Below are positions 4,807-53,284 of a stretch of 64,000 nt of DNA, one piece after another. Where the stretch lies: positions 2,729,504 to 2,793,503 of the forward strand of contig OZ241328.1 of assembly GCA_965199995.1 (NCBI GenBank). Direction: 5' to 3'. The notes beneath the pieces were generated by a model that was not told where the DNA came from, did not search any database, and was given only the letters and a program-made list of their open reading frames with translations. Source of the DNA: Dehalococcoidia bacterium. Its GTDB lineage: Bacteria; Chloroflexota; Dehalococcoidia; Lucifugimonadales; UBA3495. The position numbers were made by a program, and so were the translations under genes. Position 1 is the stretch's first letter, and the number at the start of each line of letters is the position of its first letter.

Positions 4807-5214
4807 CTACCCGCCCTCCGTCAGCGGCTGCAGGATGTCCAGCAGTGTTTCCATATCATCAAGATTCGCTCCGATTATTTCCGGACGCAGAAAGCGCTTG
4901 CGGGTGTAAAAATATCCGTGCATCGTATTCGCGGTATTTCCCAGAGTACGCACCTGCTCATTGCCTGTCAGGTCCTGAGCCTGATACATCACGGTAAAGA
5001 ACTCATCGTGCCGGCGGTACTGCCAGCCCTGCGACTCCGCCACCGCCTTCGCCATCCACGCCGCCGCGCCCCAGCCCTTTTCCGACGCCTGATGCAAATC
5101 CCCCTCGGCTAAGTATTGCCGCGCCTTCCCCAAGAACTCCAGGGACTGCTGCCGGTAATCCCCCACCGCGTTCCTATCCTGTTCGTAAGGCTCCATTGGA
5201 GCGGCATCGTCCAT
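4807..5214 (-). CDS. PaREP1/HEPN-like helical protein, tandem copy A
   Basis: The ATG at 5214 is preceded by GGAGGA plus 9 nt. Motifs L.EGDL.QASEKGWGAAAW.AKAVA...GW and LH..FY.RK match my recollection of the PaREP1 family. It belongs to a 469-bp tandem unit. Confidence 0.7.
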   Translation of the reverse strand: MDDAAPMEPYEQDRNAVGDYRQQSLEFLGKARQYLAEGDLHQASEKGWGAAAWMAKAVAESQGWQYRRHDEFFTVMYQAQDLTGNEQVRTLGNTANTMHGYFYTRKRFLRPEIIGANLDDMETLLDILQPLTEGG

Positions 5215-5275
5215 TCGCAAGCATCCTCCGAAGAAAATTAACAGCGCAGGCCCGCGGCCAACAATTCCAGCGCGC

Positions 5276-5683
5276 CTACCCGCCCTCCGTCAGCGGCTGC
5301 AGGATGTCCAGCAGCAACGCCACCCGGTCGAGGCGCGGGCCAATATCATCAGGGTGAAGAAACACCTTGCGGGTGTAATAGAATTCGTGCAGCTTGCTGG
5401 CAGTATCCTCCAAGTCAATCAGCCTGCCGTCGCCGGATAGCTGCCTGGTCTGGCGCATCACTTTGTGAAATTCGTGGTGCCGGCGGTACTGCCAGCCCTG
5501 CGACTCCGCCACCGCCTTCGCCATCCACGCCGCCGCGCCCCAGCCCTTTTCCGACGCCTGATGCAAATCCCCCTCGGCTAAGTATTGCCGCGCCTTCCCC
5601 AAGAACTCCAGGGACTGCTGCCGGTAATCCCCCACCGCGTTCCTATCCTGTTCGTAAGGCTCCATCGGAGCGGCATCGTCCAT
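5276..5683 (-). CDS. PaREP1/HEPN-like helical protein, tandem copy B
   Basis: Same start context as copy A. The N-terminal portion up to ...GWQYRRH is identical to copies A and C. This is the only copy with an R-x4-H string (RKVFLH). Confidence 0.7.
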   Translation of the reverse strand: MDDAAPMEPYEQDRNAVGDYRQQSLEFLGKARQYLAEGDLHQASEKGWGAAAWMAKAVAESQGWQYRRHHEFHKVMRQTRQLSGDGRLIDLEDTASKLHEFYYTRKVFLHPDDIGPRLDRVALLLDILQPLTEGG

Positions 5684-5744
5684 TCGCAAGCATCCTCCGA
5701 AGAAAATTAACAGCGCAGGCCCGCGGCCAACAATTCCAGCGCGC

Positions 5745-6152
5745 CTACCCGCCCTCCGTCAGCGGCTGCAGGATGTCCAGCAGCAACTCCATGTCATCGA
5801 GACCTTCACCAATGGTATCGCCATACAGAAATATCTTGCGCTCGTAGAAATTCCCGTGGAGCGTTCCTGCCGTATCCGACAAGGTACGCAACCTACCGTC
5901 GCCGGATAGCTGCCTGGCTTGACGCATAACCTTGAAGAATTCGTTATGTCTGCGGTACTGCCAGCCCTGCGACTCCGCCACCGCCTTCGCCATCCACGCC
6001 GCCGCGCCCCAGCCCTTTTCCGACGCCTGATGCAAATCCCCCTCGGCTAAGTATTGCCGCGCCTTCCCCAAGAACTCCAGGGACTGCTGCCGGTAATCCC
6101 CCACCGCGTTCCTATCCTGTTCGTAAGGCTCCATTGGAGCGGCGTCATCCAT
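5745..6152 (-). CDS. PaREP1/HEPN-like helical protein, tandem copy C
   Basis: Same architecture. It carries the LHGNFYERK motif. It lies directly downstream of aroB on the same strand. Confidence 0.7.
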   Translation of the reverse strand: MDDAAPMEPYEQDRNAVGDYRQQSLEFLGKARQYLAEGDLHQASEKGWGAAAWMAKAVAESQGWQYRRHNEFFKVMRQARQLSGDGRLRTLSDTAGTLHGNFYERKIFLYGDTIGEGLDDMELLLDILQPLTEGG

Positions 6153-6198
6153 TCGCAAGCATCCCCCAGGGAGATTGTATAGCAGCCGGCGCCCGGCG

Positions 6199-14092: not shown

Positions 14093-15361
14093 ATGGTCAT
14101 CGCAAACGTTAACTCGTTGGTTGACATCGACCGGGGACTGATAAGCCCCCGCATATTCAGCGAACACGCCATCTACCAGGAAGAGCTGGAGCAGATTTTC
14201 GCTCGCTGCTGGCTCTTCCTATGCCACGAAACCCAAATCCCCAACCCCGGCGATTTCTTCACCACATATATGGGCGAAGACCCTGTTCTCGTAACCCGCG
14301 ACCGCCAGGGTCGAGTCAACGCCTTCCTCAACATCTGCCGGCATCGCGGCAACCGGCTCTGCCGCGCCGAAGACGGCAACGCTTCCGCCTTCATCTGCGC
14401 TTACCACGGCTGGGCCTTCGGCGCCGACGGCAATCTGCAAGCCGTTCCCAACCTGCAAGACGCCTACTACAACGAGCTGGACCAGTCCAAATGGGGCCTC
14501 ATCCCCGTGGCTCAGCTCGATAGCTACAAGGGCCTTATCTTCGCCACTTTCGACCCCGCCGCGCCCCCGTTGCTGGACTACCTCGGCCCCATGACCTGGT
14601 ATCTGGACACCCTCTTCGACCGGCGCGAGGGCGGCAGCGAGATTGTCGGCGGCGTGCACAAATGGGTCGTGCCTTGCAATTGGAAAATGCCCGCCGAGAA
14701 CTTCGCCGGCGACGCCTACCACGTCCAGTGGTCTCACCTGTCTCCCATCCGCGCCGGGTTCAGCGTCGGCGTCACCGCCCAGCCTAAGATGAAAGGCGGC
14801 CCAGTGGCTATGGGCAACGGGCACAGTATGATTGCCGTGGGCGCAGACCAGTCCGGCGCTCCCTTGCAGATACTGAAAGATTATGAAGACGATACCCGCG
14901 AGGAACTGGAAGCGCGGCTCGGCCCCCGCGCCGCCATGCTGAACCCGATAGTAGGCACCGTCTTCCCCAACTTCTCCATCCTGCGCGGCAGCTCCCACTC
15001 CTTCCGCGTTTGGCACCCCAAGGGTCCCAACAGCGTCGAGATCTGGTCATGGGCCTTCGTTGACAAGGCCGCGCCGCCCGAGATCAGAGAGGCTGTCCGA
15101 AAGAGCGCCGTCTGGGGCTTCGGTCCCTCCGGCACCTTCGAGCAGGATGACATGGACAACTGGCAGGAATGCACTGTCACCAGCCGCGGCGTGGTCGCCC
15201 GCCGCCAGATGCTCAACTACCAGATGGGCCTCGGCCGCGAGGCATACAATCAGGACTACGAAGCCGTAATCGCCGACTTCCGGTACAGCGACAGCAACCA
15301 GCGCTTCTTCTATCAGCGTTGGAGCGATCTTATGGCCGCCGAAAGCTGGGCTGGGCTGTAG
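14093..15361 (+). CDS. Rieske aromatic-ring-hydroxylating dioxygenase, alpha subunit (copy 1)
   Basis: 422 aa. Rieske motif CRHRGNRLC...CAYHGW. Mononuclear-iron region includes DAYH. Confidence 0.9.
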
Positions 15362-15434: not shown

Positions 15435-15839
15435 ATGACAACTCGCTATATTGACCAAATAGCCGACTACCAAGCTCAAGCCGAGGAATTCCTGGCCAAG
15501 AGCCGGGAATCCTTGGCCCAACGAGACTTTCATCAAGCACCGGAAAAGGGCTGGGGCGCGGTGGCCCCCATGGATAAGGCAGTGGCGGTGGCTCAAGGCT
15601 GGGCATATGACAGCCATTCAGACTTTTCCAGCGTGCTGTATCAGGCCAGACTCTTGGCCGGCAATTCCGGCTTGCTGGGTATGCGCGCCATCGCCAGCGA
15701 ACTGCACGCCAACTACTACCGGCGTAAAAGACACTTGAACGCGGAATCCATCCGCAAGGAAATAGAGAGTATCACCGAGATGCTGGCAATTCTCCAACCG
15801 CTGACCGGCATAAACCGTAACGGTGAGGCAATCCAGTGA
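15435..15839 (+). CDS. PaREP1/HEPN-like helical protein, fourth diverged paralog
   Basis: 134 aa. Motifs FLAKSRESLAQRDFHQAPEKGWGAVAPMDKAVAVAQGW, LHANYYRRK and a C-terminal LAILQPLTG are colinear with the tandem copies at 4807-6152. Confidence 0.65.
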   Translation: MTTRYIDQIADYQAQAEEFLAKSRESLAQRDFHQAPEKGWGAVAPMDKAVAVAQGWAYDSHSDFSSVLYQARLLAGNSGLLGMRAIASELHANYYRRKRHLNAESIRKEIESITEMLAILQPLTGINRNGEAIQ

Positions 15840-16564: not shown

Positions 16565-17833
16565 ATGGCTACGATGCAAATGGCGACCCTGGCAGACCCC
16601 GACAACGGCGTTATCAACCCTCGCATTTTCAGCGACGAGGAAATCTATCAGCAGGAACTGGAGCAGATTTTCGCCCGTTGCTGGCTCTTGCTCTGCCATG
16701 AGACCCAGATTCCCAATCCCGGCGACTTCCTCACCACCTATATGGGCGAAGACCCGGTTCTGGTAGTGCGCGACCGCTCGGGCAAGGTTGGCGCGTTTCT
16801 GAACATCTGCCGGCATCGCGGCAACCGCCTGTGCCGCGCCGACAATGGCAACGCCGCCGCCTTCATCTGCGCCTACCACGGCTGGGCTTTCAGCAACGAT
16901 GGCTCGCTCCAAGCCGTTCCCAATCTTCAGGATGCCTACTACAATGAGCTGGACCAATCCCAGTGGGGCCTCATCCCCGTGGCCCAGCTCGACATCTACA
17001 AGGGCTTGGTCTTCGCCACCTTCGACCCTAACGCTCCGCCTCTGCTGGAATACCTCGGCCCCACCACCTGGTATCTCGACGTATTCTTCGACCGGCGCGA
17101 GGGCGGCGTCGAAGTCATCGGCGGCGTTCACAAATGGCAAATCCCCGCCAACTGGAAGATGCCCGCAGAAAATTTCTGCGGCGACGGCTACCACACCGGC
17201 TGGAGCCATCTGTCCGCCGTCACCAGCGGCTTCGGCGGCAGCTTCCGCTCTCGCCCTTCCCGCGAGGGCGCGGTCATCTCCCCGGCCAACGGCCACTGCA
17301 TCGTTGGTCTTGGCCCCGACGACCCCTCCGACCCGGCCGTTCCCGAGATTCTGGCCTACGAAGAGGAAATCCGCGAGGAAGTGGCCCAACGCCTGGGGGA
17401 GCGCCTGCGCCTGATTCGCCCCCACGCCGGCACCATATTCCCCAACCTTTCCCTGCTCCGCAGCATTTCCCGCACCTTCCGCCTCTGGCAGCCCAAAGGG
17501 CCCGGCAAAACCGAAATTCAGGCGGCGGTATACGTGGACAAAGCCGCCCCACCCGCCGTTAAGGAGGCTTTCCGCATCACCGCCCTCCGCACTTTCGGGC
17601 CGTCGGGCGTGTTCGAGCAGGACGATATGGATAACTGGGAAGGATGCAGCGTTGCCGGCCGCGGCGTTGTTTCCCGCAGGCATGACCTGAACATCGGCAT
17701 GGGCCTCGGCCACGCCCGCTATGATGAGGACTTGCTCGGTTGGGCCAGCGACTATCGCCTCAGCGAAAACAACCACCGCGCCTTCTACCGCCGCTGGATC
17801 CAGCTAATGGACTCCACCGGCTGGCCGCAATAG
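16565..17833 (+). CDS. Rieske aromatic-ring-hydroxylating dioxygenase, alpha subunit (copy 2)
   Basis: 422 aa and colinear with copy 1. The Rieske motif CRHRGNRLC...CAYHGW is identical. Divergence is mainly in the C-terminal catalytic half. Confidence 0.9.
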
Positions 17834-18010: not shown

Positions 18011-18553
18011 ATGCGAGACGACACCCTGCGCGAGGTCGAGCAATTCCTGTACCGCGAAGCCAGACTGCTGGATGCTCGCAGGTTCGACGACTGGCTCGAC
18101 CTCTTGACCGAAGACCTGAAATACTGGATGCCCCTGCGCTCCAACCGCTACCCTGCCTACAGCAAGGCCATCTCCATCCTGGACGGGTCGCGCTACGAAG
18201 AGGGCGAAATCTCCGGCGAGGATGACCTGGCCATCATGGACGAAGACAAGGACTCGCTGACCCGCCGCGTCCGCCGTCTTGACACCGGCATGGCTTGGGC
18301 CGAAGACCCGCCGTCGCGTACCCGTCACTTCGTATCCAACATCGAGGTCGAGCCCGGCGGCCGGGAATCGGAGCTGAAGGTTTATTCCAACTTCATAATG
18401 TACCGCACCCGCGGCGAAACCGAGCAGGATTTCTATGTGGGCAGCCGCGAGGACATCCTTCGCCGGGAAGACGGCCAGCTCAAAGTCGCCTACCGCAAGA
18501 TAATCCTAGACCAGACCGTCCTCCTCGCCAAAAACGTCAGCAACTTCTTCTAA
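18011..18553 (+). CDS. Aromatic-ring-hydroxylating dioxygenase, beta subunit
   Basis: 180 aa. The N-terminus ...EQFLYREARLLDARRFDDWLDLLTEDLKYWMP is the classic SnoaL-fold beta-subunit opening. Confidence 0.88.
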   Translation: MRDDTLREVEQFLYREARLLDARRFDDWLDLLTEDLKYWMPLRSNRYPAYSKAISILDGSRYEEGEISGEDDLAIMDEDKDSLTRRVRRLDTGMAWAEDPPSRTRHFVSNIEVEPGGRESELKVYSNFIMYRTRGETEQDFYVGSREDILRREDGQLKVAYRKIILDQTVLLAKNVSNFF

Positions 18554-18734: not shown

Positions 18735-19520
18735 ATGACTCCTAGTCGAAGAAGAAGGGAAACAACTCGCGAAGAAGCGGTTAACGGCGCCTTGGAACGG
18801 GTGTTGCGGTTACATGGCTTGAATGCCAAGGCGGAACGCCGCAGCAAGGAAGGGGCGCCCGACGCGAGAATTGAGTTGCGCAGCGGCGATTTGGTGTTGC
18901 TGGAATGCAAGTGGAAAAGCTCCGCCGGTTCATTGGACGAGCAGATTGCCGGCCGTCTGCAACAGTTCCCCGAAGCATTGGGAATCTTTGGAGTGCTTTA
19001 TCCGGAGAGGCTACACGGCGAAGATGACATCCAGGCGTCCCTATTAGCCGCCGGGGACTTGCGCTGGCGGCTGTACGGCTCCCGCGGGCAGCCGGTGACG
19101 GGAAGTCCGCTCCGCTCCGGCTCTGTGGCGGACCTGGCGGACCAGTTGCGCGTTCTCCCGCTGGAACTGGAGGGAGCCGACCGCGTTGACGCCGCTACTC
19201 AAGTTGTTGACTACGCTATTGAAAAGGCCGTTGAACCGATCAGACAGCATCGGCGCATTTCCCGTAGAATTGCGGACATAATCGCGGAAGCCGACAAAGA
19301 GAGCGACCGTATCGCCGCCCTCCGCATCGGCTGTCTTGTGCTGTTCAACGCCCTGGCTTTCCAAGACCGGCTGGCCGGGGCCGAGGAGGCACGGCGGCGG
19401 CACGAGGATGCCGGGGGCCGCGACGCCCCGGCCTTGCATAAGGCGATGGTGGAGCAGGCCATCCATGGCTACGATGTGCAGCTATCCGCCATCCAAAATG
19501 ATGCCATCGTCCGGTTCTAG
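18735..19520 (+). CDS. Hypothetical protein with an N-terminal PD-(D/E)xK-like motif, possibly a gene remnant
   Basis: PDARIEL-x8-LVLLECKW gives a D...ExK spacing. A later helical region ALRIGCLVLFNALAFQDRL follows. No family recognised with confidence. Confidence 0.4.
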   Translation: MTPSRRRRETTREEAVNGALERVLRLHGLNAKAERRSKEGAPDARIELRSGDLVLLECKWKSSAGSLDEQIAGRLQQFPEALGIFGVLYPERLHGEDDIQASLLAAGDLRWRLYGSRGQPVTGSPLRSGSVADLADQLRVLPLELEGADRVDAATQVVDYAIEKAVEPIRQHRRISRRIADIIAEADKESDRIAALRIGCLVLFNALAFQDRLAGAEEARRRHEDAGGRDAPALHKAMVEQAIHGYDVQLSAIQNDAIVRF

Positions 19521-20961: not shown

Positions 20962-23892
20962 TTACGTCATCTGGCGCTGAACCAGTTCCCGGAAAGGCCC
21001 TTCGACGGCATAGAGTTCATCAAAGCTCCCCTGCTGGACAACCCGCCCGGCATCCAGCACATAGATGCGCCCGGCTTTGCGGATGGTAGAGAGGCGGTGG
21101 GCAATCACGATGCGGGTGGCCGACAGGCTTTCGATGCCGCTCATAACCTGCGCTTGGCTCCTGGCGTCGAGCCAGCTAGTGGCCTCATCCAAGAAAACAA
21201 TACTTGGGTTTCGCACCAGTGCCGCCGCGATTCTGATGCGCTGAACCTGCCCCCCTGAAAAGGTCGATGCGTTATCGCTGACCACCGTGAACATCTCCAT
21301 GGGCATCTCGGCGATGTCTTGGTCCACGTCCGCCAGGCGCGCAGCCTTCCAGGCGTCTTCAATGTCCAGGTCGCCCCCCATACCGATAATGCTGTCGAGG
21401 ATGCTCCCAGGCAACAAAGTTCCGTCCTGCATCACGACGCCAATCTGTCGCCGTACCGAGCGTCGGTCCAAGTTGGCCATATCCCTTCCGTCGTAGTAGA
21501 TGCTGCCCGAGACCGGATCTTCGAGTCCCAACGCCAAGCGCATAAGGGTGCTCTTGCCCGCGCCCGACTCGCCGATGATGGCGATGAACTCCCCCGGTTC
21601 GGCGTGAATTGATACATCGCTGATAATCTGCGGGCCGTCCTCGGTATAGCGGAAGCTAACGCGGTCGAAGCGAATCCTCCTGTTCAGTTGGACAGAATCG
21701 CCCTCCTCCGTCCGGCTCTCGGGAATAGCATCCAGGATGGGCTTCACCTGCTCATAGCTGGGGAGAAGGGCGGCCACAACCTGGAAAGAGTGTCCCAGCC
21801 CGGTAATCGCTGCGTAGAAGGTCATCGAGACGGCGTAAATCGCCAGGAAATCGCCCACCGAGATTTCGCTGGAGTTGCGGAGAAGCATGGCGGCGAAAAG
21901 GGCGGCACCCACCAGGACGGGCAAAGCGGCGCTGAAAGAAATGAGGTGTTCGTTCAAACGGGACACCGCTATTCCGTGGACGTGCTGCTCGCGGTAGTTC
22001 CGGGCCCAGGCGGCGAAGGCTGAAGCCTCGGACCCGGTGGCGCGGAGCTTGCTCATACCGTTGATGAACTGGAACAGCTCCCCCGTAAGGCGCCGCGACA
22101 CCTCATACCGGCGCCTCTGCGGGGCCAGTTGCAGAACCCCGATAACGGCGGTGAATGCCAACGCAAATAAGGCAATAGTGAGACTAACTAGGGCCAGAGC
22201 GGCATCATATACAAACAATATTGCCATAGTAGGCAAGAGAAAGACTAAAGACAGCAGGGCATTAGCCACCACCCCGGAAATCTGGTCCCGGATAACCTGG
22301 AAGACCACCATCCGCACGGCAATATCGCCGGCGGTGTAGTTCCTGAAGAAGTTGGAGGGAAGCCTTAGCAAGCGGTCCCAGGAGGCCGCCGCCAGTCGCG
22401 TCGCGCCCCGGCCCTCCAGCCGCATCATCGCCGTTCCCTGAAATATCTGGAGCAGAACCCCCACGGCGGCAAAGGCGGCCAGAGCGATGATAACCTGAAC
22501 CAGCATACCGCCCGCAGCCACCGGCAAAACCCGGTCGGCCAGTATGCCCACGGCGATGGCCGGAACCTGAACCAACAGGCTCGCCAGAAGCCCGGCCAGG
22601 ATGAAAAGGCCCAGATCCGTCTTTACCCCCACGGCGGCTAAACGGATGAGATGCTTTACCGATGCCGGGCTGTTTTCGGGCAGGGGCGCGTAGAACATCC
22701 AAGCTTCGGAGGCGATGTCTTGAGCGCGGGCGGCATCCACGCTGGCCGACTTCCCTGAAACCGGGTCTACTACCCGATAGCGGCCCCGCTTAGCGGGCAA
22801 TAGCGCCACCGGCTGCCCGCCCTCCTTCAGGAAGCCCAGCATGGCGCCGCTGTCGCCGAGCCACCACCGGTCTTCCGGCACCAGCCGCACCTTGCGCGAG
22901 CGAATCCCCGAAGCGGTCAGCACGCTCCGAAGAGTGGGGCTGCCGTCAGAGGAAGCGGGCCGCGGCGGCGCCCGGAAAACGATGCCTTCATGCTCGCCTA
23001 TCACGTTCAGGGCCAGCATCAGGGGCGGGGCGTCCGCCCTCTCCCGGGAGCGCCGGGAACCCAGAACGGTAAACAGTCTCTCGCGGGCGTGCTCCTCGTC
23101 CCGCCGGCGGTGGGTAGTCCGGGCAGTTACCTCATTCATCTCGTCGGCCAGCGACAAGAGACTGTTAAGCTGTTCCGCTCCGAGGGCCAACCCGTGAAAC
23201 TCGTCCAGAGCCTGGAGCAGCTTGCCTTCGCGTTGCAGGTCTGCCGAAAAAACTCCCTGCACCCGAGTGGCCCGAGAAAAAGTGGCCCAGGTATCCGAAG
23301 TAACCGGAACCAGACCCGTGCCGTCCGGAACCGTTTCCTCCGTGCCCAGATAGGCAGAACTGCCATCTTCGGCGGAGACCCACAAAAGGACGCCGGGCCG
23401 CGTGGAGAGGATGCAGCCACTTTCGGCTTCCAGCGTTTCCCCGGCCATCTCCGGCTCAATCAGCATCGTAGGACGGAAATACAGCTCTATCTGCTCCGCT
23501 ACGCTGGTGGCGAACTCCGACACCCACCAGTCTACCTGGCCGCTCAGTTCTTCGCCCGCATCGCGCTGCCAGAGTTCTTCCAGCTTCAGGCGATAGAGCC
23601 TGGTTCCCGGCACCCCTTTGGCGATGGCCGCCAGCGGCTGGTTCCGGTGCCCGATTCCGAAGACGAGGCGGCCCGGCCCGGCCCGTATCATGTGCTTGGA
23701 TTTCGAGGCCGCGACCCCGTCCCGGTGCTCAAAGAGAAATACGTCGAGGGCGCCTTCCTCGATATACCAGGCCACGCCCGGGTCGTCCAGGCGGATGGGC
23801 AGGTTAGCGCCCCCGGCGAAGGGTTCGCCTATCTCTGGCGCAGTTTCGGCTAACCGCGAGGGCCAGGTCAGGCTTTTTTCTGGCGCCGTCAT
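20962..23892 (-). CDS. Bacteriocin-type ABC exporter, second subunit, with a Cys-less C39-like domain and N-terminal beta-barrel (cNMP-binding-like) repeats
   Basis: 976 aa. C-terminal ABC ATPase has GESGAGKST, LSGGQ-type FSGGQVQR and FLDEATS. A six-TM exporter domain is present. The central region (...LALNVIGEHEGIVF...DRWWLGDSGAMLGFL...) resembles a C39 fold lacking the catalytic Cys. The cNMP-like assignment of residues 1-270 is tentative. Confidence 0.85.
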   Translation of the reverse strand: MTAPEKSLTWPSRLAETAPEIGEPFAGGANLPIRLDDPGVAWYIEEGALDVFLFEHRDGVAASKSKHMIRAGPGRLVFGIGHRNQPLAAIAKGVPGTRLYRLKLEELWQRDAGEELSGQVDWWVSEFATSVAEQIELYFRPTMLIEPEMAGETLEAESGCILSTRPGVLLWVSAEDGSSAYLGTEETVPDGTGLVPVTSDTWATFSRATRVQGVFSADLQREGKLLQALDEFHGLALGAEQLNSLLSLADEMNEVTARTTHRRRDEEHARERLFTVLGSRRSRERADAPPLMLALNVIGEHEGIVFRAPPRPASSDGSPTLRSVLTASGIRSRKVRLVPEDRWWLGDSGAMLGFLKEGGQPVALLPAKRGRYRVVDPVSGKSASVDAARAQDIASEAWMFYAPLPENSPASVKHLIRLAAVGVKTDLGLFILAGLLASLLVQVPAIAVGILADRVLPVAAGGMLVQVIIALAAFAAVGVLLQIFQGTAMMRLEGRGATRLAAASWDRLLRLPSNFFRNYTAGDIAVRMVVFQVIRDQISGVVANALLSLVFLLPTMAILFVYDAALALVSLTIALFALAFTAVIGVLQLAPQRRRYEVSRRLTGELFQFINGMSKLRATGSEASAFAAWARNYREQHVHGIAVSRLNEHLISFSAALPVLVGAALFAAMLLRNSSEISVGDFLAIYAVSMTFYAAITGLGHSFQVVAALLPSYEQVKPILDAIPESRTEEGDSVQLNRRIRFDRVSFRYTEDGPQIISDVSIHAEPGEFIAIIGESGAGKSTLMRLALGLEDPVSGSIYYDGRDMANLDRRSVRRQIGVVMQDGTLLPGSILDSIIGMGGDLDIEDAWKAARLADVDQDIAEMPMEMFTVVSDNASTFSGGQVQRIRIAAALVRNPSIVFLDEATSWLDARSQAQVMSGIESLSATRIVIAHRLSTIRKAGRIYVLDAGRVVQQGSFDELYAVEGPFRELVQRQMT

Positions 23893-23919
23893 ATCTCAGC
23901 TCAATTCAACAGCCTGATT

Positions 23920-26115
23920 TCAGTTGGCCTGAATAAGCTGGTAGTATAACCCCTGCTCATCGGCGATAAGCTCTTCGTGAGAGCCGCGCTGAACCGGACG
24001 CCCCCGCTCCATAACGATAATCTGGTCGCAGTCCCGTATGGTGCTGAGGCGGTGGGCGACGATAAGACAAGTGCAGCCCCGCCGGCGCAGAGCGTCATCA
24101 ATCTGCACTTCCGTCAAAGCGTCGAGGGTGCTGGTGGCCTCATCCAGGAACATGATGGAGGGATTATTGACCAGGGAGCGGGCAATTTCCAGACGCTGAC
24201 GCTCGCCGCCGCTGAAGTTGCGTCCCCCCTCCTCCACGCGAGAGTCGTAACCGGCGTTCCGGCTCATGATGGTATCGTGAATCAGGGCGTCCCGTGCGGC
24301 GTCCACCACTTGGCGCTCATGAACGGTCGGGTTCCACATAGTCAGGTTTTCGCGCACTGTGGCGTTGAACAGGAAAATGTGCTGATCCACCGTCGCCACC
24401 GAGCCGGTAATGACTTCCCGGGGTATCTGGTCCACCGGCGCGCCGTCGAACAGAATCTCGCCTGACCAGGGGGTGTATTCCCCGTTAACCACCCGGAGCA
24501 AAGTGGACTTGCCCGAACCCGTCGGCCCAATCAGGGCCACCCGCTGGCCGGGTTCAATGGTGAGGTTGAAGTTTTCTATCAGCGGCGGCCTGTTGGACTG
24601 GTAGCCGAAGGTAACGTTGCGCAGTTCGATATGTCCGGCGAGGCTCAGCCGTCCGTTCAGGGTTGCGGCCCCGCCGGACGGGGAGCCGGCATTGGCTTTC
24701 AGAGCCGGGGCTTCTTCCGCCGAGAGGACGTCGCTGATTCGTTGCAGGTCGGCCTCCAGAATTTGCAGCGAATCTGCGAAATACACGAAGCGGCCAATGG
24801 GAACGAGGAAGCTCCCGGTCAGCACATAGAATCCCATCAATGCGCCGAGGGTCAGGTCTCCTTCCATAACCCGCCATCCCCCGAAGCCTAGCACGGTCAT
24901 ACCACCCAAGAGCAGGAACAGCTTGGGCAAGGCATTGATAACATGGCTCAGCTCGATGAATTTCTGCCGGGCCAGAAGCTCCCGCGCCTGATAACCGGCC
25001 CACCGCACAAAAAAATCGTCCTCAGTGGCGGTGGCCCGCAAGGAGTCCATGCTGCGCAGACCGGAGGTTCCGGTGCTGAAGAGGAGCGCCTGCTCCCGCA
25101 GCATTTGCCGGTTTTCGTCGGTCCGCATCCGGCTGAAGATGCGCACCAATACTATGCTGAGAAGCCCAATAGCCGCCACCATCGCCGCCAGCAGCGGGTC
25201 GAACACGAACATCAGCCCCAAAAACAGGATGCTCACAAAGAGTTCAATTATGATGGCCGCCAACTGGCTGGAGGCCCCATTAGCAACCTGGTAGATAAGC
25301 TGAACCCGCGAAGTCAAGTCTCCCGCGTAGCGATGGGCGAAATACTGGGAAGGAAGCCGAAAGATGCGCCAGAGCATTTTCTCGGCGTTAACTACGGATA
25401 GCCGGATAGTGAGCTTTCTTAAAGTATATTGCTGTAACCAGGAAAGCAGGTAAACCAACACCCCGGCCGCGATGGCGGCACCCACCACAAACTTCCCCCA
25501 CTCCCGGTCTCCGCCGATGAGTATGCTGTCCACAAATATGCTCAGGAGGATGGGCAGCGCCAGCCCCGGCAGCGTAAGCAGAAGCCCCGCCGCCATGGCA
25601 TACGCCAGCGAGCTTAAGTCGCTGCGCAGCCAGGGCCAGAGTTCCCGGAAAACCGAGGGGGGCCGGCCGCCGGTCTCAAAATCAGGGCCGGGCTCCGCCA
25701 GCAGCACAATTCCGGTGAAAGCCTGGTCGAAAACTTCCGCGCTTACCGAACGGCGGCCGTTGGCGGGGTCGTTGAGATAAAAACGGTCCCGGCCCAAACC
25801 TTCAAGAATCACGAAGTGATTGAATTCCCAGAAAATAATCGCCGGCAGGGGGGTGTTTTCCAAGTCTTCAATCTGCTTGCGCCAGCCGGTGATGTGCAGT
25901 CCATATCGCTGCCCGGCCCGCAAGATGTCGGCTGCGCTGCTGCCGTCGCGGTTCACCCCGCAGGCCAGACGAAGCTCTTCAATCGGAACCCAGCGCCCGA
26001 AATAGGCCAGCAGAACACCCAAGCAAACCGCGCCACACTCGGTTGTCTCGAGCTGCGAGATAAGAGGGGTTCGGACACGCCTTCCAGCGAACCGTTTTAT
26101 GCCAACTCCCAACAT
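23920..26115 (-). CDS. Bacteriocin-type ABC exporter with an N-terminal C39 cysteine-peptidase domain
   Basis: 731 aa. C39 motif QLETTECGAVCLGVLL and the later FNHFVILEG His region. Six-TM domain. ATPase has GPTGSGKST, FSGGERQR and FLDEATS. Confidence 0.9.
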   Translation of the reverse strand: MLGVGIKRFAGRRVRTPLISQLETTECGAVCLGVLLAYFGRWVPIEELRLACGVNRDGSSAADILRAGQRYGLHITGWRKQIEDLENTPLPAIIFWEFNHFVILEGLGRDRFYLNDPANGRRSVSAEVFDQAFTGIVLLAEPGPDFETGGRPPSVFRELWPWLRSDLSSLAYAMAAGLLLTLPGLALPILLSIFVDSILIGGDREWGKFVVGAAIAAGVLVYLLSWLQQYTLRKLTIRLSVVNAEKMLWRIFRLPSQYFAHRYAGDLTSRVQLIYQVANGASSQLAAIIIELFVSILFLGLMFVFDPLLAAMVAAIGLLSIVLVRIFSRMRTDENRQMLREQALLFSTGTSGLRSMDSLRATATEDDFFVRWAGYQARELLARQKFIELSHVINALPKLFLLLGGMTVLGFGGWRVMEGDLTLGALMGFYVLTGSFLVPIGRFVYFADSLQILEADLQRISDVLSAEEAPALKANAGSPSGGAATLNGRLSLAGHIELRNVTFGYQSNRPPLIENFNLTIEPGQRVALIGPTGSGKSTLLRVVNGEYTPWSGEILFDGAPVDQIPREVITGSVATVDQHIFLFNATVRENLTMWNPTVHERQVVDAARDALIHDTIMSRNAGYDSRVEEGGRNFSGGERQRLEIARSLVNNPSIMFLDEATSTLDALTEVQIDDALRRRGCTCLIVAHRLSTIRDCDQIIVMERGRPVQRGSHEELIADEQGLYYQLIQAN

Positions 26116-26129
26116 AGTCCCAGACGGCT

Positions 26130-27026
26130 TCAGTTAACGCCCAGGGAGGTTATCAGACCCACCGGGCGCCCTTCTCCCAAGACAATTTGAAGGCTACACG
26201 GGGAGCCGCCGGTCAGGTGAGCCGGCGCGTCTGGCAAGGAAATGCGAACCAGATGGCTCTGCCCTGGCCCGTCGAGGCCCAAGACGGCCAGCCAGCCGGG
26301 CGCCGGGCCTGCCCGTTCCGCAATCTGAGTGACTGTTGCCTCCAGGGGCTGCGCCTCCCGTCCGGGCGATGACGCCACAACGCGGGCCTGCATACCGCCG
26401 GAGACTCGCCGGGCGTTCTCGGAATCCAGCAACGCCACGGCTTCCAATCCCGGCTGAGAGCCGGAGCGGATTACGGCAACCCCGTCTCCGGCGATAAGGC
26501 TTTGCCCGGGAACCAGCGTATGAGAGGCCAGCTCGCCCGAATAGGAGCTGACGATGAATTCGCCGGAAGCCTGAAGCGTTTCGATGCCGATTAGTTCGGC
26601 GCGAGCCGCAGCCAGCGCATCGGGGGACGTTCCCTCCATCTCTTCCAAGACGCTCAAGCGCGCGCGGGCAAGAGCCAAATCGCGGCTTAACTCCGGAACT
26701 CTAATCCGGGCTATAGCCTGACCCACCGCAACGGATTCGCCCGGCGAGGCTAGGACATCCATAACCTGGCCGCCGGATTCCGCAACCACCAAGTGCCGTT
26801 CGCCCGGCGACGCCAGCACGCACTGGACGGTGAAGCTCCGCTCGATGCTGCCAAAGATAACCCAAAGCACAGACCCCATCACCACAACTGCCAACCCGGC
26901 CAAAACCACCCACTCGTGCGGCGCGGTGACTCGCAACAGGCCATCCATAGGCTCCGCCTGTCCCTGACGGGAAAAGGCTGCTTCACGAAAGAGCGACCTG
27001 CGAGAAGACACTGTTTCCCGATTCAC
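26130..27026 (-). CDS. HlyD-family secretion adaptor of the peptide exporter
   Basis: 298 aa. N-terminus SLFREAAF...EPMDGLLRVT.PHEW followed by a single TM helix, then beta-barrel/lipoyl-like segments. GTG start is as in the track; the exact start is uncertain. Confidence 0.8.
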   Translation of the reverse strand: MNRETVSSRRSLFREAAFSRQGQAEPMDGLLRVTAPHEWVVLAGLAVVVMGSVLWVIFGSIERSFTVQCVLASPGERHLVVAESGGQVMDVLASPGESVAVGQAIARIRVPELSRDLALARARLSVLEEMEGTSPDALAAARAELIGIETLQASGEFIVSSYSGELASHTLVPGQSLIAGDGVAVIRSGSQPGLEAVALLDSENARRVSGGMQARVVASSPGREAQPLEATVTQIAERAGPAPGWLAVLGLDGPGQSHLVRISLPDAPAHLTGGSPCSLQIVLGEGRPVGLITSLGVN

Positions 27027-27171
27027 TCCATAAATACAGGTTTAAGGACATCACCGACAGTTACTGGTATTGCCGAATAACCTCGCGCATAACCCGGCAT
27101 TCCTGACAATCTTGCCCCCGCCCTTCCCTTCCCGCGAAGCTTGTCCTAATTAAAGCCGGAATTGGCGAAAT

Positions 27172-27221
27172 GACAAAAAGACTGAATGCCTTTCCCCAAT
27201 AGTATACGGAAAGGCATTCAG
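27172..27221 (-). terminator. Intrinsic terminator between the precursor peptide genes and the exporter genes
   Basis: On the minus strand there is a 14-bp perfect stem, ctgaatgcctttcc / ggaaaggcattcag (27182-27195 / 27208-27221). It has a 12-nt loop and is followed by TCTTTTTGT. Confidence 0.6.
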
Positions 27222-27296
27222 ATTTGCACGGGCTTTATTTTCATGAGGGGGCCGCTCATAGCAAGCGGCCTTTTTACTCCCCAAATTCTAGGAGGA

Positions 27297-27473
27297 TTAA
27301 CCCCTCATTATCCCCCTGGTCTCGGGCTTATTTGCATTGGCAGAGGATTCGTCATCAGAAGTCGAGCTGCCCCGCAATCCTCCGCCAGCGACATTCTCCA
27401 ACTCAGCGATGCTAAGCTGCCCTTCTTTCGATTCTTCGGCAGCCTGGGGTTCTACATTATCATTCTCAGCCAT
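27297..27473 (-). CDS. Double-glycine-leader precursor peptide 2 (58 aa, not in the ORF track)
   Basis: Hand translation gives MAENDNVEPQAAEESKEGQLSIAELENVAGGGLRGSSTSDDESSANANKPETRGIMRG*. The leader ends ELENVAGG. It is on the same strand as the C39 exporter and immediately upstream of it. Confidence 0.7.
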   Translation of the reverse strand: MAENDNVEPQAAEESKEGQLSIAELENVAGGGLRGSSTSDDESSANANKPETRGIMRG

Positions 27474-27520
27474 GATCTATTCTCATTCCGTAAAATTCTG
27501 CTACATCGAGGCTACGGGGG

Positions 27521-27697
27521 CTAGATGCTGTCCCTTGCGCTCTCCGATTGCATCTCGTTCTCGAGGTCGGAGATGACACTACTCGAGAACGGAGAGGACC
27601 ACCCACCAACGACTTCTTCCATCTCAGACGCCTCGAGCTGCCCGGTTTCCTCGCTTGCCTCCGCAGGGGTCTGCTGCTCTGTCTTCTTCTCCTCCAT
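27521..27697 (-). CDS. Double-glycine-leader precursor peptide 1 (58 aa, not in the ORF track)
   Basis: Hand translation gives MEEKKTEQQTPAEASEETGQLEASEMEEVVGGWSSPFSSSVISDLENEMQSESARDSI*. GGAGG lies 7 nt upstream of the ATG. The leader shares GQL-x3-E(L/M)E-x-V-x-GG with peptide 2. Confidence 0.72.
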   Translation of the reverse strand: MEEKKTEQQTPAEASEETGQLEASEMEEVVGGWSSPFSSSVISDLENEMQSESARDSI

Positions 27698-27816
27698 AAT
27701 ACCCCTCCATACTGCTCTATATCAATACCGTCGATACAGTTAATAGTATTCTGTAACACGATGCTACGGAATGTCAACTTCGGGACAATGGCATTTCGAG
27801 GCCGTTGAAAATACCC

Positions 27817-42091: not shown

Positions 42092-42781
42092 CTAATGACC
42101 GGCAACCGCCGGGCCGGCGTCAAATCCGCCCACCAGGTATAGCAGCGTAAAGATAACAATCCAGACTATGTCCACGAAGTGCCAATACAAGCCGCAGATT
42201 TCCACGTCCAGAGCCGTGCCGGGATGCAACCGTCCCTTAAAGGAAATTATGAACAACGAAACCAGCCAGATGATGCCCAGCGTAACGTGCGCCCCGTGGA
42301 AGCCTGTCAGGGTGAAAAAGGTAGCTCCGAACAGATTCTGGCCCAGGGTCAGCCCTTCGTTCTTGAACAGGTTGAACTCATAGACCTGAAACCCGATAAA
42401 GATGGCGCCTAGGATGGCCGTTGCCAGCAGCCAGATTTTTATTCCCCGCTGGTCGTTCTCGTTGGTGGCTGCCAGCGCCCGCACCATCGAGAAGCTGCTG
42501 CACAGCAACACGAAGGTGCTGATGGTGGTAATGGGAATATCGATAATGTCTACCGGGTAGGGCCCGGAAAGGCTCTGCCCCCGGTAGACCATGTAGGTGG
42601 CGATAAGAGAGCCGAAGAACAGGCAGTCCGACCCCAGAAACACCCACATCAACATCTTCCGGTGGTTGAGGCCGGTGGTGGTGTAGTCGTGGCCTATCGC
42701 CTCGTGGTGGCCCCCGGCGTCGTGCGCCCCTCCATGTCCGTGGGCCGGTTCGTGATGGGCCGTTTCAGGTACGTGGGCCAA
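42092..42781 (-). CDS. ctaE: Cytochrome c oxidase subunit III
   Basis: 229 aa. FFGS, GFHG.HV..G and WYWHFVD motifs are present. Confidence 0.9.
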   Translation of the reverse strand: MAHVPETAHHEPAHGHGGAHDAGGHHEAIGHDYTTTGLNHRKMLMWVFLGSDCLFFGSLIATYMVYRGQSLSGPYPVDIIDIPITTISTFVLLCSSFSMVRALAATNENDQRGIKIWLLATAILGAIFIGFQVYEFNLFKNEGLTLGQNLFGATFFTLTGFHGAHVTLGIIWLVSLFIISFKGRLHPGTALDVEICGLYWHFVDIVWIVIFTLLYLVGGFDAGPAVAGH

Positions 42782-42805
42782 AGTCCCGTCTCCTACCCGT
42801 CTCTC

Positions 42806-44644
42806 CTAGTGTCCTTCTTCGGCGGAGGCCGGCTCGTTGCTCCAGCCGATGACGCCGATGAAGGCTATCAGTCCGCCCAGGAAGCTCACGCCGTAGTGCG
42901 ACAACAGGCCGCCTCCAATCAATCCCACGCCAGCCGCCGTGATAATGGGCCAGTAGGACGGGCTGGGCATATGGATCGTCCTGGGGTCAACCGCCGCTTC
43001 CGGCTCCGTGATGGGGTTACCGGCCTCGCGGGCCTCGTCCTTCACTATCCAGTAATGGTCGCGGCCCCGGACGCGCGGCACCTCTGCGAAGTTATACGCC
43101 GGCGGCGGCGATGCGATGGTCCATTCCACTCCGGGGGCATCCCAGGGGTCGTGGCTCACGCGGCGGGCGTTACGATTCTGCCACACCGCATAGATGAACA
43201 CCAGCACCCCGATAAGGATGACAAAGTAGCCAAGGGTGGACAGCAGGTTGAGCGGCCCCCAGCCGAATTCCTCGGCGTAGGTATATATCCGCCGCGGCAT
43301 TCCGTTCATCCCTACGAAGTGCATCGGGAAGAAAGTGATGTTCATCCCGATGAACACCAGCCAGAAGTTTATCTTGCCCAGCGTCTCGTTCAGTATCTTG
43401 CCGGTCAGCTTGGGCCACCAGTAATAGATACCGGCGAAAATGCCCATTATCGAGCCACCGAAGAGCACGTAATGAATGTGGGCCACGACGTAATAGGTGT
43501 CTTGTTGCTGGAAGTCCGACGGCGATACTGCGTGGGAAACGCCGCTCAGCCCACCGATTATGAATAGGAACAAGAACCCTAGAGCATACATCATCGGTGT
43601 CGTAAACTCGATGCTGCCCTTCCACATCGTTCCCAGCCAGTTGAATATCTTCACGCCCGTCGGCACCGCTATGAGCATGGTCGTGATAGTGAACACCGAG
43701 TTGGCGATGGGCCCTAAGCCCACAGTGAACATATGGTGGCTCCAGACCGCCCAGCCCATGATGCCGATTACGATGCCGGAGAATATCACGAAGGGATACC
43801 CGAACAGCGGTTTCTTTGAGAAGGTCGGCAGAATCTCCGACACTATTCCCATTGGCGGCAGGATGAGGATATACACCTCGGGATGCCCGAAGACCCAGAA
43901 CAGATGCTGCCAGAGAATCGGGTCCCCGCCGCCCGTCGGGTTGAAGAAGTGCGTCCCAAAGTTGCGGTCCATCACCAGCTCGATCAGCCCGACGGTGATG
44001 ACCGGCATCGCCAGTATCAGCAGAATGGACGTTATCAGCGTCATCCACACGAACACCGGCATCCGCATCAGCGACATACCCGGCGCGCGCAGGTTGACGA
44101 TGGTCACCACGAAGTTGAGACCGCCCGCCACCGACGAAGTTCCCAGAACCAGCAGGCCGATGGCCCAGAAGTCCAGCCCCAGGTTATCGCTGAAGGGATA
44201 CTCTGTCAGATTGGCGTAGGAGAACCACCCCGCGTCTGGCACCTGATTAACGATGAAGCTGAAGTGCATCAGGATGGAGCCAAACAGGAATATCCAGTAC
44301 GACAGCGCGTTGAGCCTGGGGAAGGCCACGTCGCGGGCGCCGATGGCCAGAGGCACCACAAAATTGAAGAAGGCGACGCCCATCGGCATGATGACCATGA
44401 AAATCATCACCGTGGCGTGCATGGTGAACATCTGGTTGTAGCGATCCGGCCCTATCAGGTCGGTGTCAGGAACGGCGAGTTGCGTGCGTATTACGCCCGC
44501 CTCAATGCCAGAAAGCAGCATGAAGATGAAGGCGGTCACCCCATACATCACGCCTATGCGCTTGTGGTCAACCGTGGTTATCCAGCTCCAAATGCCGGAG
44601 GCGCCATACGTTGGTCGGGCTAGTACCTCGGTTATCGTAGCCAT
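42806..44644 (-). CDS. ctaD: Cytochrome c oxidase subunit I
   Basis: 612 aa. Motifs WFFGHPEVYILILP-type (LFWVFGHPEVYILILP), HHMF and VAHFHYV-type (VVAHIHYVLFGG). Confidence 0.95.
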   Translation of the reverse strand: MATITEVLARPTYGASGIWSWITTVDHKRIGVMYGVTAFIFMLLSGIEAGVIRTQLAVPDTDLIGPDRYNQMFTMHATVMIFMVIMPMGVAFFNFVVPLAIGARDVAFPRLNALSYWIFLFGSILMHFSFIVNQVPDAGWFSYANLTEYPFSDNLGLDFWAIGLLVLGTSSVAGGLNFVVTIVNLRAPGMSLMRMPVFVWMTLITSILLILAMPVITVGLIELVMDRNFGTHFFNPTGGGDPILWQHLFWVFGHPEVYILILPPMGIVSEILPTFSKKPLFGYPFVIFSGIVIGIMGWAVWSHHMFTVGLGPIANSVFTITTMLIAVPTGVKIFNWLGTMWKGSIEFTTPMMYALGFLFLFIIGGLSGVSHAVSPSDFQQQDTYYVVAHIHYVLFGGSIMGIFAGIYYWWPKLTGKILNETLGKINFWLVFIGMNITFFPMHFVGMNGMPRRIYTYAEEFGWGPLNLLSTLGYFVILIGVLVFIYAVWQNRNARRVSHDPWDAPGVEWTIASPPPAYNFAEVPRVRGRDHYWIVKDEAREAGNPITEPEAAVDPRTIHMPSPSYWPIITAAGVGLIGGGLLSHYGVSFLGGLIAFIGVIGWSNEPASAEEGH

Positions 44645-44727
44645 AATTTGCTATTCCAGCAGCGGGTTTCGTGGGTTGCCGCCCTCTCATCGCCGAAAGG
44701 CGAGGGCGGTGCCTTTGGGTTTGCAGT

Positions 44728-45927
44728 CTAACGCAGGTTCAACAGATACTCAATCAGAGCGTCTATTTGGTCGTCGGTCAATGTAGCGTCGCCCCCTTCT
44801 TCATAGAAGGCCGCCTTGTCATACATCCAGTTGCCGGGCTTGATATCGTCGGGATTCTTGATCCACGCCCGCAGATTCTCCACCGTCAGATCGGTGATGC
44901 CCGCGGCCAGCGTCTGCCTGGTGCGCAGGTCGGTCAGGTTAGGCCCCGGCACCGCCACCGAATCCTCGCCGGTGAGGAAGCTGTCCCGGCGGGACAGGGC
45001 CACCGCCTCGATTTCCGGGCCGTTGATAGTATGACACAGGGCGCAGTGGATCTGGAACTGCGTCTTCCCCTGCTGGGCGCGCGGCGTGAGGGCCTGCGGC
45101 GGGCTGTAGCTGGCAACCCAGTCCTGGTAACCTTCCTCATCCATCACGGTAACGCGGAAGCGCATCTGCGCGTGAGCTACGCCGCACAGCTCGGCGCATT
45201 GCCCATAGTAGGTCGCCGGCAAGGGCTGGTCGATCATGTTCGAGTCCGCCAGCAGCCACAACGTATTCTGACGCGCCGGCACCACGTCCACCTTGCCGCC
45301 CAGCTTAGGCACCCAGAAGCTATGCAACACGTCGTCGCTTTCCATTGTCAGCCAGATAGGCCGGTCCACCGGGATGCGCAACTCATTGGCCGTGCTGATT
45401 CGCTTGCCCTTGCCGTCCGCATCGGGATACTCGAACTCGAAATACCACTGATGACCGGTGACTGTCACATTCAGTATCTCGCCCCGGTCGGTGGGCGGCT
45501 GGTCCAGCTCGAACAGGGTGAAAACCGACCAGATTCCCAAGCCGAGAATCAGCGCGGTGGGTATGATAGTCCAGGTCACTTCCAGGGCGGTATGGCCATG
45601 AATCTGCGGCGGGCGCGGCTGTCCCGGCCGCCGGCGATAGCGAATGATGATGTAGAGCAGCGCGCCCTCCACCAGCACGAAGACGACCACCATCGTCCAC
45701 AGCAAGGCATTGAAGAGCTCTAACTGCTTATCCGCCACCGGGCCGACGGGATCCCAGGTGGACTGGAGTCCCTTGCTGCAAGCCGTTATCAGCAAGAAAA
45801 GGGCCGCCGTCGCTCCGAGAAAGGCTAACTTGATTAGCCTGTTTCGGCGCGGAGCGGGCCTCTGAATGTTTTCGTCAGGTGTGGGTTCCGGTGGGGACCC
45901 TGCCCTCTTTCCGGGCAACAACCCCAT
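44728..45927 (-). CDS. ctaC: Cytochrome c oxidase subunit II with a C-terminal cytochrome c domain (caa3-type)
   Basis: CuA site DVLHSFWVP...CAELCGVAHAQM. C-terminal heme site CALCHT. Confidence 0.9.
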   Translation of the reverse strand: MGLLPGKRAGSPPEPTPDENIQRPAPRRNRLIKLAFLGATAALFLLITACSKGLQSTWDPVGPVADKQLELFNALLWTMVVVFVLVEGALLYIIIRYRRRPGQPRPPQIHGHTALEVTWTIIPTALILGLGIWSVFTLFELDQPPTDRGEILNVTVTGHQWYFEFEYPDADGKGKRISTANELRIPVDRPIWLTMESDDVLHSFWVPKLGGKVDVVPARQNTLWLLADSNMIDQPLPATYYGQCAELCGVAHAQMRFRVTVMDEEGYQDWVASYSPPQALTPRAQQGKTQFQIHCALCHTINGPEIEAVALSRRDSFLTGEDSVAVPGPNLTDLRTRQTLAAGITDLTVENLRAWIKNPDDIKPGNWMYDKAAFYEEGGDATLTDDQIDALIEYLLNLR

Positions 45928-50415: not shown

Positions 50416-50420
50416 TTCTG

Positions 50421-51473: not shown

Positions 51474-51563
51474 CCCCTCTCCCAAAGGGCGCGGCCTTAG
51501 TCCCGCGCCGCTGCCCGCAACCGCCCCGCCGTCATCGCGTGCCTTACCGCCAGCGAGGGCTTC

Positions 51564-53166: not shown

Positions 53167-53284
53167 GAAATTTACTCCTGTGTTGAGATTAAAGTTTCTA
53201 ATTTCCCGATTCCGGTATTCCCCATTCTCAGAGGAACCCGGAGCCTTCCGGGCAACAAAAAAGCCCTGCCCAACTAAGGACAGA

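Follow-up and report, generated by a model that had tools for sequence, protein, structure and literature searches.

Two small genes beside an NHLM-type exporter

What does a peptide exporter carry when the small genes beside it encode nothing that resembles a bacteriocin, a sensor-paired pheromone, or a typical precursor of a ribosomally made, post-translationally modified peptide (RiPP)? Double-glycine leaders and ATP-binding cassette (ABC) exporters with a C39 peptidase domain are textbook, but this question is raised by a locus in a 64,000-nucleotide stretch of a Dehalococcoidia bacterium genome (GenBank assembly GCA_965199995.1, contig OZ241328.1, positions 2,729,504 to 2,793,503), referred to here as the window, in which two small minus-strand genes, pepA and pepB, lie upstream of three genes for an exporter of the NHLM type. 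As read from their sequences, pepA and pepB are real genes for precursors with double-glycine leaders, and it is likely that their products are cleaved and exported by the adjoining cassette. This pairing of precursors and exporter was proposed in a first-pass annotation of the window, and it is supported by the exporter family models, the LahT-like protease domain, a leader profile, and the relatives of the locus. The novelty lies in the class of cargo and in its association with a single exporter clade, which among the sampled loci is found mostly in sponge-associated Acidimicrobiia; the NHLM exporter family, the LahT-like protease, and the generic double-glycine leader are already known. 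Among the features that the annotation had considered foreign to known classes, the cargo therefore keeps that standing, whereas the leader is a generic bacteriocin-type signal and the exporter belongs to a known family.

Gene pepA (27521..27697, minus strand) begins 120 nt beyond the gcvPB stop codon and encodes a 58-amino-acid (aa) precursor with a 32-aa acidic double-glycine leader (ending in GQLEASEMEEVVGG) and a 26-aa core (WSSPFSSSVISDLENEMQSESARDSI). Gene pepB (27297..27473, minus strand) encodes a second 58-aa precursor, with a 31-aa acidic leader (ending in GQLSIAELENVAGG) and a 27-aa core (GLRGSSTSDDESSANANKPETRGIMRG), and both open reading frames (ORFs) are present with the coordinates and translations first assigned to them. 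The leader ends share GQL-x3-E(M/L)E-x-V-x-GG, with Gly-Gly at positions -2/-1 and with Val, Met, and Leu (pepA) or Val, Leu, and Leu (pepB) at positions -4, -7, and -12. The paired glycines, the hydrophobic residues at these three positions, and the adjoining C39 transporter characterize bacteriocin-type leaders. The predicted cores contain neither Cys nor Tyr, have grand average of hydropathy (GRAVY) values of -0.58 and -1.23 with a longest hydrophobic run of two residues, and have no obvious similarity to each other. The shared motif, the leader lengths, the absence of Cys, and the unrelatedness of the cores were all described correctly at first, although of the two cores said to be net anionic only that of pepA is so (net charge -4), that of pepB having a charge of 0.

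The start codon of pepA is preceded at 6 nt by a Shine-Dalgarno sequence, GGAGGGG, the motif having been recognized earlier with a spacing of 7 nt, and the GC content at its codon positions 1/2/3 (0.56/0.42/0.76) matches that of the genome's genes, the neighboring ones included. Alternative frames that overlap pepA and pepB are noncoding in appearance. The peptide segment is AT-richer than its flanks, as had been noticed, with a GC content of 0.50 to 0.54 compared with 0.60 to 0.70. Gene callers predict both genes on 22 Logan contigs that are 99.7 to 99.8% identical to the window, a set biased by its retrieval with the exact pepA sequence, and both frames are intact in every population contig.

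The three exporter genes are on the same strand and tightly packed, with gaps of 14 and 27 nt, and code for a HlyD-like membrane-fusion adaptor (26130..27026, minus strand; 298 aa from a GTG, or 272 aa from an ATG at 26948), ABC1 (23920..26115, minus strand; 731 aa), and ABC2 (20962..23892, minus strand), a second ABC half-transporter of 976 aa. ABC1 is composed of C39, transmembrane, and nucleotide-binding domains (Pfam Peptidase_C39, ABC_membrane, and ABC_tran), with a match of 8e-32 to Peptidase_C39 (PF03412), and passes TIGR03796 over its full length (918.8 bits; cut-off, 853.3). The C39 domain matches LahT150 (6MPZ) with an E value of 8e-39, and the oxyanion residue Gln21 and the catalytic Cys27, His100, and Asp116 are all kept, without variation among 11 relatives, bearing out the initial description of this domain as intact. 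ABC2 passes TIGR03797 (747.3 bits; cut-off, 709.4) across residues 290 to 975, and the Walker A, signature, Walker B, and H-loop motifs are canonical in both ABC proteins. The initial description of ABC2 as a 976-aa second ABC protein stands, but the Cys-less C39-like domain and beta-barrel repeats ascribed to it are not demonstrable; residues 290 to 425 have no BLASTP similarity to a C39 domain, and a profile-profile comparison gives a collinear 105-column alignment with a probability of 0.5%.

Residues 1 to 290 of ABC2 (22993-23892, minus strand) lie outside the TIGR03797 match, are 37 to 55% identical among relatives, and are retained across the short-peptide and NHLP exporter clades (described below) alike. 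Secondary-structure prediction points to a beta-rich region that also has long helices, and a function in regulation or substrate binding is conceivable. Searches of Pfam and the PDB, with the region as a single sequence or as a profile, gave no match, and an AlphaFold2 model of it is too poor for use (mean pLDDT, 46.7). A cyclic-nucleotide-binding fold is not supported, as hhalign against a manually entered Escherichia coli CRP sequence gave a probability of ∼1%.

Related exporters and their cargo

A scan with ABC1 over one genome per species yielded 80 loci, and the relatives with more than ∼50% identity are nearly all in metagenome-assembled genomes (MAGs) of sponge-associated lineages. These include "Candidatus Poriferisocius," "Candidatus Poriferisodalis," "Candidatus Aldehydirespirator," and other Acidimicrobiia, as well as Dehalococcoidia, Gemmatimonadota, Nitrospirales, and Binatia; the families Poriferisodalaceae and Aldehydirespiratoraceae include sponge-associated clades (PMC11706023). 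A scan of JGI metagenomes gave no exporter with more than 70% identity to that of the window. In a neighbor-joining tree, the window ABC1 falls in a clade with 17 relatives, mostly from sponge-associated Acidimicrobiia, and 15 of the 17 have one or two short-leader, Cys-free, hydrophilic double-glycine peptides beside the cassette; one ENA contig provides an additional short-leader example. The peptide genes take one of three positions: upstream of the adaptor gene, downstream of ABC2, or immediately beyond ABC2 but on the other strand. No peptide is detectable within 10 kb of the exporter in clade members L003 and L004 or in the Gemmatimonadota branch.

The leaders in this clade have the consensus (E/D)-L-(T/S)-x-x-E-L-x-x-V-x-G-G, and the 17 cores are 17 to 50 aa long, range in net charge from -7 to +5, and are rich in Ser, Gly, Pro, Ala, Thr, and Asn, with Cys in none (0/17). 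Sixteen have GRAVY values between -0.22 and -2.46 (mostly -0.6 to -2.5) and one a value of +0.38, and hydrophobic runs do not exceed three residues in any. Cores of this kind are probably disordered and linear. They vary among lineages but are recognizably conserved between sister species, and in orthologous peptide pairs the frames are kept, with dN/dS values of 0.14 to 0.56 from small samples.

A 16-column leader hidden Markov model (HMM), built from 13 peptides of other genomes with the window excluded, was run against all 1,651 six-frame segments (minimum length, 20 aa) of the 64 kb. The first-ranked segment is pepA (E value, 0.01) and the second is pepB (E value, 0.37), with the next segment at 6.6, and the two best are adjacent to each other, on the exporter strand, and at the position expected for cargo. 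Neither the NHLP model (TIGR03793) nor the Nif11 model (TIGR03798) matches either window peptide at an E value of ≤1, consistent with the earlier view that the leaders are of neither kind. One peptide from a relative passes TIGR01847 (17.1 bits; cut-off, 15.7), and relatives' peptides have weak leader-level matches to the VP1, ComC, and EntF-inducer models; the curated models detect only the leader, and apart from the one TIGR01847 pass all matches are below cut-off.

The sister clade of exporters is accompanied by NHLP precursors instead, often in arrays, and such NHLP arrays are confined to it. At loci L011, L018, L021, L023, L024, L026, L036, and L080 the arrays lie downstream of ABC2, with up to ∼13 precursors and with Cys-free cores of 5 to 19 aa that mostly end in Trp. 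The cores HHTGLWG and GSHKGYYW are identical between one Nitrospirales MAG and Dehalococcoidia MAGs, and VFIWGYV and LSVIGTWN recur in several Dehalococcoidia MAGs; these cores are srp-proteusin-like but are not of the published LCCCW type. A cyanobacterial MAG (L078, positions 805-2670) has six tandem Nif11-leader precursors with Cys-free, hydrophilic cores of ∼12 to 23 aa that are rich in Lys, Ser, and Asn, so hydrophilic Cys-free cargo is not restricted to the short-leader class.

Genomic context

The locus is situated between the gcv operon (gcvPB, gcvPA, gcvH, and gcvT) upstream and a convergent gene for a 3-hydroxyisobutyrate-dehydrogenase-like protein downstream, a placement that a Pfam scan of the flanks verifies. 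The scan covered the called genes of the window with the exception of the obvious cytochrome-oxidase subunit genes (42092-45927), and among the scanned genes none codes for a YcaO, LanM, or radical SAM protein, a histidine kinase, or a response regulator, with no matches to HisKA, HATPase_c, or Response_reg. There is also no small membrane-protein ORF within or beside the locus that could be an immunity candidate, and the absence of tailoring, immunity, and two-component genes from the 64 kb, claimed at the outset, thus holds for the scanned genes and for the ORFs by the locus. The scanned genes include those for threonine-synthase-like, ThiS, TGT, TauE, AroB, and AroK proteins, Rieske oxygenases, the dehydrogenase and gcv proteins, ABC-2 transporters, cytochrome-oxidase assembly, a B12-riboswitch-controlled uptake operon, and nucleotidyltransferase and helicase fragments.

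Clustering of the neighboring genes of 14 relatives with the short-leader type of cargo reveals no tailoring gene common to their neighborhoods; only the ABC proteins and the adaptor are broadly common, and other neighbor families are common to only four near-identical genomes. The upstream genes sampled in relatives code for CoA-transferases, MetRS, TatD, PurL/PurM-like proteins, a transglutaminase, and a Cys/Met pyridoxal phosphate (PLP) enzyme. No meaningful flanking direct repeats are present in the window as island boundaries. Because the neighbors differ among genomes and only the exporter trio is common, the peptide and three export genes look like a self-contained module with a context that varies by genome.

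Expression, cleavage, and export

Upstream of pepA, the TTGACA at 27777 that had been put forward as a -35 element is followed, 18 nt on, by CAGAAT, and together they form a sigma-70-like promoter candidate (27748..27777, minus strand) that agrees with the consensus at 10 of 12 positions and lies ∼45 nt ahead of the pepA start codon. Its weight is reduced by the number of promoter-like sites in the region, which is four, compared with 2.0 ± 1.4 in shuffled sequences, and is no excess. Between the gcvPB stop codon (27817) and pepA there is no terminator-like site, and the gcv operon could therefore also supply transcripts by read-through. Directly past the pepB stop codon is an 8-bp GC-rich hairpin (GGCCGCTT..AGCGGCC; 27250..27270, minus strand), and between the peptide and exporter genes is a terminator- or attenuator-like element (27168..27221, minus strand) in which a hairpin (27219-27184; inverted repeat I8) has a perfectly paired 14-bp stem (100% complementary) and a loop of 12 nt and precedes AGTCTTTTTGTCATTT. 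The consensus terminator scan missed the 14-bp hairpin because its loop limit was 8 nt. The 110 nt downstream of pepB have a folding z score of -3.5, and strong hairpins are also found 3' of the peptide genes in several relatives. Peptide-gene transcripts that end at a hairpin, with read-through to the exporter genes, are a common layout in bacteriocin operons.

From the sequence we infer how the locus may operate. The peptide genes would be transcribed from the spacer between gcvPB and pepA, by initiation at a promoter of their own or by transcription continuing from the gcv operon, and most transcripts would stop at the strong hairpin past pepB, with those that read through this putative attenuator feeding the HlyD-like/ABC1/ABC2 operon. 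The amphipathic helical end of the leader, with Val at -4, Met or Leu at -7, Leu at -12, and Gly-Gly, may then bind the hydrophobic groove on the C39 domain of ABC1, Cys27 would cut after Gly-Gly, and the 26- to 27-aa core would be exported by ABC1, probably in partnership with ABC2 and aided by the short adaptor. If cleavage and export proceed in this way, the odds that the cores are released unmodified are about even, and this outcome is more likely than tailoring.

A role as membrane-active bacteriocins is unlikely because the cores are hydrophilic, Cys-free, and probably disordered, and a signaling, host-directed, matrix-related, or other extracellular role is possible. We also consider a more far-reaching proposal, which is speculative and on balance rather doubtful, that these are self-contained modules specific to sponge symbionts, mainly Acidimicrobiia, that secrete unmodified, disordered, hydrophilic, Cys-free peptides with species-specific cores, and that these peptides act as RaxX- or VP1-like host or community signals or as matrix factors, and not as antimicrobials, the exporter clade having switched from NHLP-type RiPP cargo.

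Alternative explanations

Several observations weigh against cleavage and export of pepA and pepB products by the adjoining cassette. The coding signals of pepB are weak, with a GC content of 0.53 at third codon positions (GC3) and no clear Shine-Dalgarno sequence, and the single population single-nucleotide polymorphism (SNP) in the peptides, S37T of pepB in ten Logan contigs of the same species (99.7 to 99.8% identical), is nonsynonymous, although one SNP, from a set biased by retrieval with the exact pepA sequence, is too few for a selection test. Neither core has a detectable homologue: word-index searches of 5.8 billion proteins with both peptides gave nothing beyond self-matches, and for pepB the same held in an exhaustive HMMER search over 1.84 billion representatives. 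TIGR01847 matches neither window peptide at an E value of ≤1, and the match of pepB to NF038167 covers the leader only and reaches 16.5 bits (cut-off, 32), with pepA having no leader-model match at an E value of ≤1. The ABC1 tree is a neighbor-joining tree without support values, cargo was detected in relatives with a regular expression and a small HMM, and the gene-absence results cover 64 kb of a ∼3.07-Mb genome, in which remote tailoring enzymes or other cargo are possible. Finally, the assignment of the cassette to the NHLM family, which both ABC proteins bear out, does not extend to the adaptor, which scores highest with TIGR03794 but reaches only 83.6 bits there (cut-off, 156.2). At 298 aa it is ∼120 residues shorter than the 421-position model, although it matches Pfam HlyD_3 at 3e-08. 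The adaptors of relatives are likewise short (269 to 346 aa), and an adaptor of this length would suit a monoderm host, for example one of the Acidimicrobiia.

Of the alternatives, the one that survives best, and which we regard as having perhaps one chance among several, is that pepA and pepB encode RiPP precursors whose Ser-, Thr-, Asp-, and Asn-rich cores are modified by distantly encoded enzymes before cleavage and export, for example by dehydration, glycosylation, epimerization, hydroxylation, or methylation. It draws on the history of the cassette family, whose definition rested on an association with RiPP precursors that are often distant from their enzymes (PMC2887384), and on the sister exporter clade, which serves NHLP precursors of the srp/proteusin kind. 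Modifiable Ser and Thr residues are abundant in the cores, but there is no Cys for rings, and leaders of 31 to 32 aa leave enzymes little beyond the end that the exporter recognizes. A class-defining tailoring enzyme beside the precursor, the mark of a RiPP cluster, is found neither in the window nor at the related loci compared; the scan took in only 64 kb of the genome, but the loci with the same cargo also have no common or adjoining tailoring gene, and their sampled neighbors are housekeeping genes in differing contexts. If the peptides are modified, this would indicate unlinked tailoring chemistry on Cys-free cores.

It is considerably less probable that the true cargo lies elsewhere, as NHLP or Nif11 peptides or larger double-glycine-leader proteins, and that pepA and pepB are decaying or incidental remnants. 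Remote cargo does occur, as the L003, L004, and Gemmatimonadota exporters without a nearby peptide indicate, and the poor translation signals of pepB would suit a remnant, but decay is at odds with the intactness of both ORFs in every population contig, with the retention of every leader position that the protease requires, and with the 15 of 17 clade relatives that retain such peptides beside the pump. That pepA and pepB are untranslated chance frames in an AT-richer intergenic spacer is very improbable, since short ORFs without homologues, one of them with neither a clear ribosome-binding site nor GC3 bias, would not be expected to rank first and second of 1,651 as adjacent same-strand segments by an independent leader profile, to occupy a position identical to the cargo-gene site in relatives, and to include in pepA a strong Shine-Dalgarno sequence and coding-like GC3 over noncoding overlapping frames.

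Comparison with known systems

The reading of pepA and pepB as cargo of the adjoining exporter places the locus closest to the NHLM three-gene export cassette, which serves NHLP and Nif11 precursors and is described by TIGR03794, TIGR03796, and TIGR03797 (PMC2887384). The gene trio, its order, and its strand are the same, ABC1 and ABC2 are above the curated cut-offs, and the leader end resembles the logo of NHLP, N11P, and TIGR01847 (PMC2887384); Haft, Basu, and Mitchell argued in 2010 that it is the exporter, and not the tailoring enzymes, that constrains this end of the leader (PMC2887384). The window differs in its cargo, with 31- to 32-aa leaders that have no NHLP or Nif11 domain and with cores without Cys, in having no cyclodehydratase or LanM gene nearby, in its shorter, sub-cut-off adaptor, and in the additional unmatched 290-aa N-terminal region of ABC2.

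The ABC1 protease is closely related to LahT, for which the last 13 to 14 leader residues are sufficient for cleavage and whose structure contacts the leader at positions -4, -7, and -12 (PMC6363468). The window C39 domain keeps the catalytic Gln, Cys, His, and Asp of LahT150, and both window leaders have the Val, Leu/Met, and Leu knobs that LahT binds at these positions. However, LahT serves lanthipeptide precursors with long Nif11-type leaders. The peptidase-containing ABC transporters (PCATs) PCAT1 and ComA also differ from the window exporter in that both function without a second ABC protein.

Among secreted peptides, the Gram-positive pheromones ComC/CSP, BlpC, and VP1, which are exported by ComAB and BlpAB, similarly have a short double-glycine leader, a small linear product (unmodified in these pheromones), and a C39 ABC transporter with an accessory protein. 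Their cores have no similarity to the window peptides, and ComCDE- and BlpCHR-like loci also carry genes for the matching histidine kinase and response regulator, neither of which is present among the scanned window genes. Class II bacteriocins and microcins are likewise made with a double-glycine leader, exported by a PCAT and a membrane-fusion protein, and are released without post-translational modification, as the window peptides may be, but they are amphipathic or hydrophobic and are accompanied by an adjacent immunity gene, whereas the window cores are strongly hydrophilic and the locus has neither such a peptide nor an immunity candidate. The srp proteusins of sponge microbiomes have an NHLP leader and a short Cys-rich core ending in Trp and are encoded with a YcaO protein and a brominase; the window peptides have no NHLP leader, no Cys, and no C-terminal Trp.

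A further parallel is RaxX of Xanthomonas, a hydrophilic, host-mimicking peptide with a double-glycine leader that is encoded with RaxSTAB and exported by a PCAT and a membrane-fusion protein. The resemblance lies in a C39 ABC transporter with a HlyD-like partner and in a peptide that has a double-glycine leader, is hydrophilic and rich in proline and polar residues, and is secreted (in the window, presumably so) by a host-associated bacterium. RaxX requires an adjacent sulfotransferase, RaxST, and carries a sulfated Tyr, and the window peptides have neither Tyr nor an adjacent enzyme; we know of no sequence similarity between RaxX and the window peptides.

A description of this cargo class was not found in the open-access literature on sponge RiPPs, srp proteusins, sponge Actinobacteriota, or in PCAT reviews, and the same type of cargo accompanies a single exporter clade across many uncultured sponge symbionts, at loci whose genomic surroundings are unrelated. 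Because the window peptides match no curated model above its cut-off, rules for mining genomes for RiPPs and bacteriocins would probably overlook such loci where they depend on models of precursor families or tailoring enzymes. Unmodified secretion, if it occurs, would make the peptides easy to synthesize and test, and they could then help to probe communication in sponges between symbiont and host or among symbionts.

Other features of the window

Other parts of the window have features of their own. A cobalamin riboswitch (RF00174; 50.2 bits) at 53329-53470 on the minus strand lies upstream of an operon for a periplasmic binding protein, FecCD, and an ABC ATPase (∼49564-53382, minus strand), which is probably for B12 uptake; the mechanically called ORF start at 53382 overlaps the riboswitch, and the true start is probably further downstream. 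At 4807-6158 (minus strand), a 469-bp tandem repeat (2.5 copies, 91% matches) corresponds to three tandem paralogues of the archaeal PaREP1/PaREP8 family in which ∼70 N-terminal residues are identical and the C termini have diverged, and a fourth copy is located 9 kb away (15435-15839, plus strand). A 436-aa ORF at 54684-55994 (plus strand) contains 10.8 near-perfect 54-bp repeats (54948-55531) with the 18-aa unit AEGFAEAASDRAAIRQEM and has no Pfam match.

Closer to the cassette, a 261-aa ORF without a family match (18735-19520, plus strand) is ∼430 bp shorter than its 404-aa counterpart on Logan contigs of the same species, a difference that points to an indel polymorphism just past the downstream neighbor of the cassette. 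Also just downstream of this neighbor are genes for two paralogous alpha subunits and one beta subunit of Rieske ring-hydroxylating oxygenases (14093-15361, 16565-17833, and 18011-18553, plus strand).

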